Positions 50,886-52,923 of a DNA stretch of 64,000 nt are shown piece after piece. Made by a program: the position numbers and the translations under genes. The notes below the pieces were generated by a model. That model was not told the DNA's origin and ran no database searches. It saw only the letters and a program-made list of their open reading frames with translations. Every line of letters begins with the position of its first letter. Position 1 is the stretch's first letter. The DNA is from an uncultured Alphaproteobacteria bacterium (lineage in GTDB: Bacteria; Pseudomonadota; Alphaproteobacteria; Rs-D84), in NCBI GenBank assembly GCA_944389185.1, contig CALXLL010000001.1, positions 93,014 to 157,013 on the forward strand, written 5' to 3'.

Positions 50886-50962
50886 CGGAGTGTAGCTCAG
50901 TCTGGTAGAGCGCTACGTTCGGGACGTAGAGGTCGCAGGTTCGAATCTTGTCACTCCGACCA
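50886..50962 (+). tRNA. tRNA-Pro (anticodon CGG)
   Basis: Acceptor cggagtg/cactccg; D-arm agctcagtctggtagagc; anticodon stem ctacg/cgtag with loop ttCGGga; T-arm gcagg-ttcgaat-cttgt(c); 3' ACCA encoded. Confidence 0.8.
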
Positions 50963-50987
50963 GAAATACACACTAAAACGTCATAAA

Positions 50988-51019
50988 AACAAGTAATTTA
51001 CAAACTTGTTCATTTTTTT
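50988..51019 (+). terminator. hairpin plus T-run downstream of tRNA-Pro
   Basis: aacaagt-aatttacaa-acttgtt followed by cattttttt. Confidence 0.4.
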
Positions 51020-51041
51020 AGCTTTTTTATTTTGTGTTTGT

Positions 51042-51050
51042 TGTTATAAT
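51042..51050 (+). promoter_or_regulatory. extended -10 element (TGnTATAAT) upstream of the methyltransferase gene
   Basis: TGTTATAAT lies 36 nt upstream of the ATG at 51087. Confidence 0.35.
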
Positions 51051-51086
51051 GAAAAGCGCAACTTTTGTATATTCTAAGGGAAAAAT

Positions 51087-52220
51087 ATGATTGATTTGTT
51101 TGGCGATAATAATTTTATAGATTTTAGCTCGGATTTTTATACTAAGCACCTAATTACATACATCGGAAACAAAAGGGCGTTATTACCTTTTATAAACTCT
51201 GGTATAGAAACTGTAAAAAAAAGCTTGGGTATTGATAAACTATTTTGCTTAGATGGTTTTGCTGGTAGTGGTGTAGTATCAAGATTGTTAAAACACCATT
51301 CTAGAATTTTGCATTCTAATGACATAGAAAATTATTCTTATATAATTAATCAATGCTATTTATCAAATAAAAGTGATATCGATGAAAAATATATAAAAAA
51401 TATATTGGATATATTAAATAACATACCAGAAAAAGATTTATATGAAGGCTTTATAACCAAGAATTATTCTCCTAAAAATGACGACGACATAAAAGAAGGA
51501 GAAAGGGTTTTTTATACACATAAAAATGCCCTTATTATAGATACTATTAAAAAAATGATATTTGAAACTATACCGAAAGATAAGCAGAAGTTTTTTTTAA
51601 GTCCTTTACTTATAAATGCCTCTGTTCATACAAACACTTCAGGTGTTTTTAAAGGTTTTCATAAGAAAAATGGTATAGGTCATTTTGGGGGGGCAGGCGA
51701 AAACGCATTGACAAGAATAAAAGGAAAAATATTTTTAGAAAATCCTGTGTTTAGCGAAGAAGAATGTGAAGTAAGAGTTTTTAATCAAGATATAAATGAG
51801 CTAATAAAAAAAACAGAAAATCAGAATTATGATTTAGTTTATTATGATCCACCTTATAATCAGCACCCTTATGGATCTAATTATTTTATGTTAAATATTA
51901 TAGCGAATCCTTCAGAAGAAATAGAAATTCAAACAGGCGTAAGTGGAATAGCAAAAGACTGGTATAAATCTGCTTATAACAAAAAAGATGCTGCAATAGT
52001 TGCTTTGGAAGATTTGATAAAGAATACGAAGTCTAAATATATTTTGATATCTTATAATAATGAAGGAATAATACCATTTGATACTTTTAAAGATATATTA
52101 AATAGATATGGGAAAGTTTCTGTTTTAGAAAAAGATTATAATACATATAGGGGCTGTAGGAATTTAAATAATAGGGATATAAAAGTAAAAGAATTATTAT
52201 GGATTCTTGAAAAGAGGTAA
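51087..52220 (+). CDS. Type II N6-adenine DNA methyltransferase, alpha class (Dam-like motif order)
   Basis: YIGNKRALLPFI (Dam-like motif X), AdoMet motif I DGFAGSGVV, catalytic motif IV YYDPPY. 377 aa; very AT-rich. Confidence 0.75.
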   Translation: MIDLFGDNNFIDFSSDFYTKHLITYIGNKRALLPFINSGIETVKKSLGIDKLFCLDGFAGSGVVSRLLKHHSRILHSNDIENYSYIINQCYLSNKSDIDEKYIKNILDILNNIPEKDLYEGFITKNYSPKNDDDIKEGERVFYTHKNALIIDTIKKMIFETIPKDKQKFFLSPLLINASVHTNTSGVFKGFHKKNGIGHFGGAGENALTRIKGKIFLENPVFSEEECEVRVFNQDINELIKKTENQNYDLVYYDPPYNQHPYGSNYFMLNIIANPSEEIEIQTGVSGIAKDWYKSAYNKKDAAIVALEDLIKNTKSKYILISYNNEGIIPFDTFKDILNRYGKVSVLEKDYNTYRGCRNLNNRDIKVKELLWILEKR

Positions 52221-52224
52221 AAAA

Positions 52225-52923
52225 ATGAGTGACTCTGATTTATTAAGAAAGACTAGAAAAAATACTGTTATAAATCAAATTTCTAAATATCAAGAGAAAG
52301 AAATAAAAAGGGCTTTGGTAAACGTTGTTGAAAAAATACAAAAAGAATTTCCTAAAATTAGATTAAACTTTAAACCTACTTCTAAATTAAGTTTTATCGT
52401 AAAACATTTAAGGAAGCTTTTTCCTGATATCGATTTTCATTATAAATTTGATTCGTCTTTTATTTCTCCGGATGGCGGTTTTTTAAATCTTGAAGATTCT
52501 GAAGGTAATCTTTATCCTGTATTAATATCAGAAGTTAAAAATCAGGGGACTAATGATAAAAGACAAAAAGAAGGACTGTGCAAACAATCAAAAGGTAATG
52601 CCATAGAACGATTAGGCAAAAATGTTATTGGTTTAAGAGCTTATTTATTAAATGAAGGAATATTCCCATTTGTGTGTTTCGGATATGGATGTGATTTTGC
52701 AGAAGATTCTTCTATTCTTGATAGGGTTATAACAATAGGAATGTTTGGTGAATTGAATAAAACATACTTGGTTAATCAGGGACTGTTCAATAGGGGAAGT
52801 TTTTATTTTAGAGATAGCAAATGGTCGGTAGAAGAAATGACAGAGATAATGTATGATATTTGTAAAAGAAGTATACATTATTATTTTGCAAAATATGGAG
52901 AAGACATATTTTTAGAAAAATAA
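52225..52923 (+). CDS. EcoRI-family Type II restriction endonuclease
   Basis: Alignable by eye to R.EcoRI: FISPDGGFLNLEDSEGNLYPVLISEVKNQG vs SIKPDGGIVEVKDDYGEWRVVLVAEAKHQG (Asp91, Glu111, Lys113 equivalents conserved); GNAIERLGKNV vs GNAIERSHKNI; C-terminal KWSVEEMTEIMYDI vs EWDSKIMFEIMFDI. Start at the ATG preceded by AAGAGG, 4 nt after the methyltransferase stop (ORF track uses TTG at 52207). Confidence 0.8.
   Translation: MSDSDLLRKTRKNTVINQISKYQEKEIKRALVNVVEKIQKEFPKIRLNFKPTSKLSFIVKHLRKLFPDIDFHYKFDSSFISPDGGFLNLEDSEGNLYPVLISEVKNQGTNDKRQKEGLCKQSKGNAIERLGKNVIGLRAYLLNEGIFPFVCFGYGCDFAEDSSILDRVITIGMFGELNKTYLVNQGLFNRGSFYFRDSKWSVEEMTEIMYDICKRSIHYYFAKYGEDIFLEK

Follow-up and report, generated by a model that had tools for sequence, protein, structure and literature searches.

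Between a tRNA-Pro gene and mltG of an uncultured alphaproteobacterium two adjacent genes are found which the sequence-only reading had taken for a compact Type II restriction–modification pair, composed of a D12 methyltransferase (M) and an EcoRI-family endonuclease (R). This locus raises the question which enzymes are encoded there, how their genes arrived at this place and which DNA sequence they recognize. It is addressed here for the whole analyzed stretch of 64,000 nucleotides (the window) and for related loci in other genomes. Pfam, hhalign and Foldseek agree on the proposed type of pair, and the locus very probably represents an intact, horizontally acquired Type IIP restriction–modification cassette of M and an EcoRI-like R (Table 1).

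Table 1. Features of the locus from tRNA-Pro to mltG, in positions of the window
Feature	Position	Strand	Evidence or remark
tRNA-Pro (anticodon CGG)	50886-50962	+	ARAGORN; resident context, outside inserted DNA
Resident tRNA-Pro/mltG spacer	50963-51050	+	aligned with spacer of cassette-free L104
Weak 7-bp hairpin with T run	50988-51019	+	within resident spacer
Extended -10 box TGnTATAAT	51042-51050	+	sequence; within resident spacer
Inserted DNA, ~1.88 kb	51051-52933	+	36-nt leader with ribosome-binding site, M, R, 10 nt; GC 27.1%
M, 377 aa, alpha-class (D12) N6-adenine DNA methyltransferase	51087-52220	+	Pfam PF02086, PADLOC
R ribosome-binding site AAGAGG	52212-52217	+	inside 3' end of M
R, 232 aa, EcoRI-family PD-(D/E)XK endonuclease	52225-52923	+	Pfam PF02963, phmmer, hhalign, AF2/Foldseek
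mltG (YceG family), resident	52934-53953	+	Pfam YceG E 1.7e-80

The methyltransferase and the endonuclease

M matches the D12 class of Pfam with 73.2 bits (cutoff 22, E 3.6e-20) and the PADLOC model MTase_II (PDLC03257) with E 7e-116; in NCBIfam it gave sub-threshold matches only and the PDB sequence search returned no usable match. The Dam-like N-terminal YIGNKRALL, FAGSG and DPPY, which had been read from the protein before, were all located as motif X (residues 25–33), motif I (58–62) and motif IV (254–257). Motif I is N-terminal, with some 180 aa of target-recognition region between it and motif IV, which is the order of the D12 or alpha class. The predicted target of M is the N6 of adenine in a palindrome built around AATT.

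R is placed in the EcoRI family by four methods. A profile search had been named in the sequence-only reading as the test of this placement, and PF02963 matches R with 71.5 bits (cutoff 22, E 7.7e-20). EcoRI chains of the PDB are found by phmmer with E 2e-15, and hhalign aligns R with EcoRI residues 27–273 over 211 columns (99.2%, E 3e-19). The AF2 model of R (pLDDT 86.6, pTM 0.83) has EcoRI as the top five Foldseek matches in the PDB (E 4e-16, TM 0.75), with the next match at E 0.02. Neither phmmer nor the Foldseek fold search matched MunI to R, and no NCBIfam model matched.

The resemblance to EcoRI over PD...E-x-K and GNAIER, formerly seen by eye, is borne out residue by residue. In the phmmer alignment PDGG of R falls on EcoRI D91, E-V-K on E111/K113 and GNAIER on residues 140–145, the segment by which EcoRI reads the inner AATT. 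The catalytic residues D83 (preceded by P82), E103 and K105 are invariant in 66 homologues, and so is the GNAIER strand (G124-N125-A126-I127-E128-R129) except for I127, which is conserved in at least 90%. The residue before this strand varies among homologues (K/Q/R/N). The invariant R167 aligns with EcoRI R200 in hhalign; in the EcoRI structure R200 is a guanine contact. R keeps every column that is invariant among the 66 homologues.

The start of R was set at the ATG at 52225 where its homologues begin; an upstream TTG would give a protein of 238 aa. This ATG follows the TAA stop codon of M (52218-52220) by 4 nt and is preceded by the AAGAGG ribosome-binding site, both as previously described. 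We infer the enzymatic activities of M and R from their genes. R would act as a homodimer that cuts the unmethylated site and leaves 5'-AATT overhangs, and its cleavage is predicted to destroy incoming phage or plasmid DNA. Both enzymes would share one palindromic specificity with methylation blocking cleavage.

Insertion between tRNA-Pro and mltG

The higher AT content of the two genes, first noticed by eye, was confirmed by windowed calculation. Compared with a window mean of 36.4% GC the cassette is the lowest 1.9-kb stretch of the window, and every sliding window under 30% GC overlaps it. Its GC3 is 0.17–0.19 versus 0.26–0.32 in the neighbouring genes. In the sister species L104 (MltG 83% identical) and L105 (70%) the 3' end of tRNA-Pro is followed by mltG without M or R, and L107 (MltG 69% identical) is without the cassette as well. 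Homology with L104 stops after 51050 and picks up again at the mltG ATG at 52934, which puts the insertion point some 90 nt past the tRNA and about 10 nt or less from the mltG start codon. The order tRNA-Pro then mltG is ancestral, the cassette was inserted into that spacer, and the M–R pair is foreign and horizontally acquired.

It is very unlikely that the cassette was ancestral at this site and became deleted in the relatives. All conspecific contigs covering the site carry it, with full-length M and R where both genes are spanned, and the closest relative L104 is also poor in RAATTY sites (4 vs 9.4 expected), which would be compatible with such a history; against it stand the three relatives without the cassette, its GC and GC3 far under those of the host, and the homologous cassettes at unrelated sites in other genomes.

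Of the proposed horizontal acquisition at a tRNA locus, the acquisition and the position between tRNA-Pro and mltG hold, the tRNA as integration target does not. The 3'-end direct repeat of tRNA-Pro that had been suspected on the far side is absent from the window, which contains a single copy of GAATCTTGTCACTCCGACCA with up to 3 mismatches allowed. Around the cassette no meaningful flanking direct repeats were found but only A+T-rich chance matches. The insert comprises M and R as its only genes, without an integrase or recombinase, and an integrase-like ORF elsewhere in the window (46238-47236) has its counterpart at the corresponding position of the cassette-free L107. Within 1 kb upstream of M a tRNA is absent in 59 of 60 carrier loci, L007 being the exception. 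A tRNA-targeted integrative island was rejected on these grounds (no tRNA repeat, no integrase, 59/60 carriers without a nearby upstream tRNA). When the 184-bp element of the sister strains was compared with Rfam, the tRNA itself was the only match.

The TGnTATAAT element said to precede the methyltransferase gene is present, and according to the L104 alignment it belongs to the resident tRNA–mltG spacer and not to the cassette. This box is the likely promoter for M, R and mltG in the present arrangement. Since the cassette lies between a resident extended -10 promoter and the mltG start, M, R and mltG probably form one transcription unit. mltG is probably co-transcribed with the cassette because it starts 10 nt past the R stop codon and no terminator lies between them; the scan of the plus strand between R and mltG reported neither a terminator-like nor a promoter-like site. 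Less remains of the terminator hairpin described past the tRNA: an A+T-rich 7-bp stem (50988-50994 / 51004-51010) with a run of T after it does exist, but shuffled sequences fold as well as this region (z -0.14), the hairpin is absent from the output of the terminator scan, and it must be regarded as weakly supported.

Recognition specificity

Counting of GAATTC, CAATTG and RAATTY, already proposed in the sequence-only reading, was performed for the host DNA of the window. RAATTY occurs at 42 sites vs 155 expected (0.27), evenly over the four window quarters, and GAATTC is depleted too (0.34); CAATTG (1.31) is not. The most depleted AATT-core hexamer is AAATTT (7 vs 62 expected, 0.11), and AAATTC and GAATTT reach 0.38–0.39. 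Ratios of 0.83, 0.84 and 0.55 were obtained for AATT, YAATTR and TAATTA, respectively. Cassette-free relatives possess 72 RAATTY sites vs 49 expected (Fisher p = 6e-11 vs host) and show ratios of 1.7–2.3 for AAATTC and GAATTT. Within the cassette itself RAATTY shows no depletion, with 7 sites vs 8 expected.

From the host counts, and from the colinear alignment of M with the A. baumannii methylase AamA described below, R^AATTY, as cut by ApoI and XapI, appears to be the likeliest recognition sequence, a reading we hold with moderate confidence. The low TAATTA ratio and the undepleted cassette count against it, and so does the composition of the cassette, which has not drifted towards that of the host and agrees poorly with a stay long enough to remove some 70% of the host sites. 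The depletion in the host could stem from a different RAATTY system or from an earlier one.

A strict isoschizomer of EcoRI and RsrI that cuts GAATTC only seems unlikely. Such an enzyme would be in line with the GNAIER strand identical to that of EcoRI, with the invariant arginine aligned to R200, with the depletion of GAATTC and with the methylation of GAATTC by AamA in vitro. The depletion of AAATTT, AAATTC and GAATTT speaks against it because an enzyme restricted to GAATTC would exert no selection on these hexamers, of which AAATTT is the most depleted and the other two differ so clearly between host and relatives. Moreover, R has neither the arm segments of EcoRI nor the R203 position.

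A four-base AATT cutter similar to MluCI or Tsp509I, or another specificity with an AATT core such as CAATTG, can be considered improbable. EcoRI, MunI and MluCI were grouped as possibly mosaic relatives in a review (PMC4081073), R is compact like MunI, and the position before GNAIER is variable; nevertheless AATT, YAATTR and CAATTG are not depleted in the host, and MunI was missed by both sequence and fold search. That the nuclease is inactive or silenced, with the pair acting mainly as an epigenetic, orphan-like methylase, is highly improbable: orphan RAATTY methylases such as AamA of A. baumannii, M.CjeNI of C. jejuni and one from Spirochaeta are known (homology of M was computed for AamA only), but R is full length, keeps all residues invariant in the 66 homologues including the catalytic triad, is tightly coupled to M, has been kept by those conspecific strains with contigs that extend over it, and the RAATTY depletion of the host argues for cleavage pressure.

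The preferred R^AATTY specificity applies to the present host. Avoidance of RAATTY across other carriers is inconsistent, with a pooled RAATTY/YAATTR ratio of 1.18 and a range from 0.45 to 5. Markov-corrected avoidance pooled over 80 carrier loci (GAATTC 0.88, AAATTC 0.96, AAATTT 0.62) resembles generic palindrome avoidance. As the pooled signal is unspecific and the ratio per locus heterogeneous, no family-wide specificity can be derived from site avoidance.

Distribution of the pair and comparison with known systems

The pairing of an EcoRI-fold enzyme with an alpha-class methyltransferase had been called unusual, a view that has to be abandoned. An M homologue adjoins the R homologue in 86/86 related loci, upstream and on the same strand in 85 of them. 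Most of the 86 loci have about 10 nt between the two genes, and in some the gap widens to as much as about 200 nt; in the flank comparison of related cassettes 0–4 nt gaps or overlaps were usual. Relatives are found in 383 species genomes, and hundreds of bacterial species carry the same pair; related cassettes lie in unrelated chromosomal contexts as well as on a 6-kb Paracoccus plasmid whose copy is already so annotated. The combination is therefore ordinary; the arrangement of EcoRI-like R plus D12 methylase does not vary within its large family. Comparison of the flanks of related cassettes showed neither conserved ends nor terminal repeats. Phages are no obvious vehicle because the scan of viral contigs gave only 6 relatives. 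The best 80 matches of the genome-contig scan came from metagenome-assembled genomes only, and among them no cultured strain with known methylome was linked to R. A literature search for a described EcoRI-like/D12 pairing or for gene sequences of ApoI, XapI and M.CjeNI yielded motif reports only.

Thus one EcoRI-like plus D12-methylase cassette has spread over many phyla, and the empty sites described above document how a bare two-gene restriction–modification unit without mobility genes can land a few nucleotides before an essential-type gene and persist in all conspecific contigs covering the site. A more far-reaching proposal, which we consider doubtful, is that a widespread lineage of 230-aa "mini-EcoRI" enzymes together with its D12 methylase constitutes the natural RAATTY (ApoI-type) system and that, in this genome, the promoter and 5' end of the housekeeping gene mltG have been captured by the cassette as well. 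If this were true, an armless R that keeps GNAIER and the R200-equivalent arginine would offer a direct handle, in sequence and structure, on the relaxation from G:C to R:Y at the outer base pair in the EcoRI fold, and mltG would depend for its expression on read-through from the restriction–modification genes, a means of cassette stabilization beyond post-segregational killing. For the uncultured gut alphaproteobacterium the predicted specificity is m6A at RAATTY with cleavage at R^AATTY; its practical value is modest, and it may be useful for methylation-based binning or for ApoI/XapI enrichment of the taxon.

Among characterized enzymes R can be compared with EcoRI and RsrI (PF02963; PDB 1ERI, 1CKQ), with which it shares the fold, PD...E-x-K, GNAIER and the arginine at R200, and presumably the AATT-core target and the 5' four-base overhang. 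It differs in being only 23–29% identical and 45 aa shorter, with about 8 aa before GNAIER and about 17–30 aa of the arms missing, and the outer base pair of its target is probably degenerate (R:Y). In contrast with the EcoRI plasmid pair, M precedes R and the partner is a D12 or alpha-class enzyme, not an EcoRI-type methylase. A counterpart with identical two-gene architecture is the pair of the Paracoccus marcusii plasmid pCP157_17 (WP_245008591.1 / WP_217847105.1), annotated as "DNA adenine methylase" and "EcoRI family type II restriction endonuclease", with R 51% and M 40% identical; unlike the present cassette it resides on a plasmid, its host is rich in GC, and there is overlap between its M and R genes.

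By its predicted recognition sequence the system can be likened to ApoI, XapI and AcsI (R^AATTY), as this site fits the RAATTY depletion of the host; M.ApoI is an m6A methylase (PMC2890505). Other m6A methylases of RAATTY are M.CjeNI, M.Spe19205I and an Akkermansia methylase, with which M would share its predicted motif. For A. baumannii AamA (A1S_0222) the locus protein was recognized by its neighbours, the methylase gene lying between nrdR-ribD and holC as in PMC10483419. M is colinear with it over 96% of its length including the target-recognition region (E 5e-52), with 33% identity, a value barely above the 28–32% found with D12 methylases whose specificity differs or is not known. In vitro the target methylated by AamA is GAATTC, and in vivo its motif is TTTRAATTYAAA. 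Unlike M, AamA (430 aa) and M.CjeNI are orphans without a nuclease partner. MunI (C^AATTG) and MluCI (^AATT) are compact EcoRI-related enzymes with an AATT core (see also PMC4081073), and the present system differs from them in that their target sites are not depleted in this host. The cassette is a further example of a known restriction–modification type, and the current understanding of such systems is unchanged by it.

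Methyltransferase and endonuclease of the cassette

The M and R genes between tRNA-Pro and mltG form a genuine, intact and horizontally acquired Type IIP restriction–modification (R-M) cassette. This identification was already made correctly in the sequence-only reading, and both open reading frames fall into the expected families. The methyltransferase M matches the Pfam family of D12-class N6-adenine methyltransferases (73 bits, cutoff 22) and, over its full length, the PADLOC model of Type II methyltransferases (E 7e-116), which backs its earlier assignment. It contains YIGNKRALL (residues 25–33), FAGSG (58–62) and DPPY (254–257). 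Motif I is followed by a middle region of about 180 amino acids and then by motif IV, which is the alpha-class layout.

The endonuclease R is a member of the EcoRI family, on which Pfam, phmmer, hhalign and an AlphaFold2 model agree. The profile search, in which the earlier reading had seen a possible refutation, puts this second ORF in the EcoRI family with 71.5 bits (cutoff 22). Searching with phmmer retrieves EcoRI PDB chains (E 2e-15) and aligns P82-D83 of R opposite EcoRI D91, E103-V-K105 opposite E111/K113 and G124-NAIER-129 opposite residues 140–145. The R profile matches the EcoRI sequence from an E. coli plasmid with 99.2% probability over residues 27–273 (hhalign), and here the family-invariant R167 stands opposite EcoRI R200. 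In the lineage of R about 8 residues are missing ahead of GNAIER, as is a longer part of the EcoRI arm region. The only significant PDB matches of the AlphaFold2 model (pLDDT 86.6) are five EcoRI entries (E 4e-16, TM 0.75). All columns invariant in 66 homologues are kept in R.

Gene layout and insertion history

Features around the tRNA-Pro/mltG site (window positions)
Feature	Position	Remark
Integrase-like ORF, 332 aa	46238–47236 (+)	between lepA and acpP-fabF
Stretch compared with L107, with AMP-binding (acyl-CoA ligase-like) gene	49064–50962	
tRNA-Pro(CGG)	50886–50962	ARAGORN
TGnTATAAT extended -10 box	51042–51050	within resident tRNA–mltG spacer
Insert	~51051–52933	
M ORF, 377 aa	51087–52220	same strand as R
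AAGAGG	52212–52217	
R ORF, 232 aa counted from ATG	52225–52923	same strand as M
mltG (YceG family)	start 52934	E 1.7e-80; 10 nt past R stop codon

The three methyltransferase motifs, AAGAGG, the 4-nt gap between the M stop and the R ATG, and the extended -10 box, all listed in the sequence-only reading, are present. A mechanical ORF list starts R with TTG at 52207; the ATG start is common to all homologues. The terminator hairpin described after tRNA-Pro is weak: its A+T-rich stem has only 7 bp and is followed by a T run, the predicted fold of the region is no better than that of shuffled sequence (z -0.14), and the hairpin is absent from the terminator scan output. Between R and mltG the scan gave no terminator- or promoter-like site, and therefore M, R and mltG probably constitute a single transcription unit.

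All conspecific contigs covering this site have the cassette there (contigs from several source studies with identical MltG or acyl-CoA-ligase-like protein). Among sister species, L104 (MltG 83% identical) begins within tRNA-Pro and runs to the mltG ATG without M or R, L105 (70%) shows the tRNA 3' end, an 85-nt spacer and then mltG, and L107 (69%) has no R-M genes ahead of mltG. Since homology between the window and L104 extends from the tRNA to about 51050, i.e. the TTGTTATAAT box, and returns at the mltG start codon, the insert can be delimited as listed. Its GC content is 27.1% compared with 36.4% for the window, of which it is the lowest-GC 1.9 kb, and its GC3 is 0.17–0.19 versus 0.26–0.32; the calculation thus bears out that M and R are more AT-rich than their flanks.

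Of the proposed acquisition at a tRNA locus, horizontal acquisition stands and tRNA-directed integration finds no support. The 3' end of the tRNA, of which a repeat was suggested for the far side, occurs only once in the window (up to 3 mismatches allowed), no meaningful repeats flank the insert, no recombinase gene lies in it, the flanks of related cassettes are not conserved beyond the two coding regions, and a tRNA is found within 1 kb upstream of M in only 1 of 60 other carriers. Ancestrally mltG lies next to this tRNA, whose surroundings are not an integration target.

Directly 3' of tRNA-Pro a 184-bp element occurs in some conspecific strains (L089:5846-6029, L090, L097, L098) and in the sister species L104 (L104:51-234); the window strain is without it (equivalent point 50962/50963). 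Its first part is a hairpin, rich in G+C, plus a T run, and a direct repeat (20–21 nt) of the 3' end of the tRNA (GAATCTTGTCACTCCGACCA) bounds it. It resembles the scar or att remnant that a tRNA-targeted element would leave, and is unconnected with the R-M cassette. For the integrase-like ORF, matches are confined to two phage-integrase domains, Arm-DNA-binding and central, and the catalytic domain gave none. Cassette-free L107 has this ORF in the corresponding position, so it is not part of the R-M insertion. The AMP-binding gene is inverted relative to L107:5682-7539, where tRNA-Pro is located between fabF and this gene and mltG comes after a minus-strand ORF of 105 aa; the surroundings of the tRNA have been rearranged locally.

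Predicted recognition site

Retention of GNAIER argues for a putative AATT core of the target. In host DNA, taken as the window without the cassette, RAATTY is found 42 times against 155 zero-order expected (0.27), evenly depleted across the four quarters of the window; the corresponding ratios are 0.11 for AAATTT, 0.34 for GAATTC, 0.38 for AAATTC and 0.39 for GAATTT. YAATTR, of the same composition, is not depleted (0.84), and CAATTG reaches 1.31. With expected counts from a Markov model, RAATTY comes to 0.48–0.52. Cassette-free relatives contain 72 RAATTY sites versus 49 expected (RAATTY:YAATTR, host versus relatives, Fisher p 6e-11). M is colinear with and 33% identical (E 5e-52) to an A. 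baumannii methylase encoded between nrdR-ribD and holC, a neighbourhood fitting that of the adenine methylase AamA (PMC10483419), which methylates GAATTC in vitro and the TTTRAATTYAAA motif in vivo. Methylation (m6A) at RAATTY is common in bacteria, e.g. in Campylobacter, Akkermansia and spirochaetes.

Consistent RAATTY depletion was not found in other carriers. Within the cassette RAATTY shows no depletion (7 sites, 8 expected), whereas the host DNA around it has lost about 70%. The foreign-looking GC content of the cassette is hard to square with an exposure long enough for most host sites to be purged. Another RAATTY system, earlier or additional, may stand behind the host depletion; the window contains no other amino-methyltransferase-like ORF but covers only 64 kb of the genome. 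Taken together, GNAIER, the RAATTY depletion, the likeness to AamA and the common RAATTY methylation favour the prediction of M-R as an ApoI-like R^AATTY system. Follow-up is worthwhile for this prediction and for the probable transcriptional fusion to mltG only.

In the window (1–64000) GTAC is nearly missing, with 10 sites where 207 (zero-order) or 123 (Markov) would be expected (relatives 41 versus 84); TCGA (35 versus 207) and GATC (53 versus 207) are low too, which suggests further R-M systems elsewhere in the genome, above all an RsaI-like GTAC system. AGCT-core sites are enriched (RAGCTY 84 versus 52 expected).

The M-R pair among known systems

The cassette family is large and already recognised by annotation pipelines. 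A 90%-clustered protein collection holds more than 2,400 relatives of R and more than 8,000 of M, and a scan of one genome per species detected R relatives in 383 genomes of Alphaproteobacteria, Dehalococcoidia, Acidimicrobiia, Planctomycetota, Armatimonadota, Bacteroidota and others. Two contigs of one Aldehydirespiratoraceae metagenome-assembled genome (L039, L040) each carry a cassette with tRNA-Ser(CGA) about 1.7 kb upstream at a matching relative position, either a duplicated region or assembly redundancy. The closest non-conspecific cassette, from a yak rumen alphaproteobacterium, has tRNA-Met 457 nt upstream of M (L007:8327-8861) and just before M an apparently coding stretch whose terminal TAA overlaps the start codon of M. 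In the window cassette there is no equivalent.

The combination of an EcoRI-like nuclease with an alpha-class methylase had been considered unusual. It is not, because an M homologue adjoins the R homologue in all 86 fetched loci (upstream on the same strand in 85, mostly at a distance of about 10 nt) and the same pair on a 6-kb plasmid of Paracoccus marcusii is already annotated as 'DNA adenine methylase' and 'EcoRI family type II restriction endonuclease'. Partner methylases of unrelated classes are already known for EcoRI-fold nucleases: EcoRI has a type of its own, RsrI a beta-class enzyme. A third class of partner is in keeping with this.
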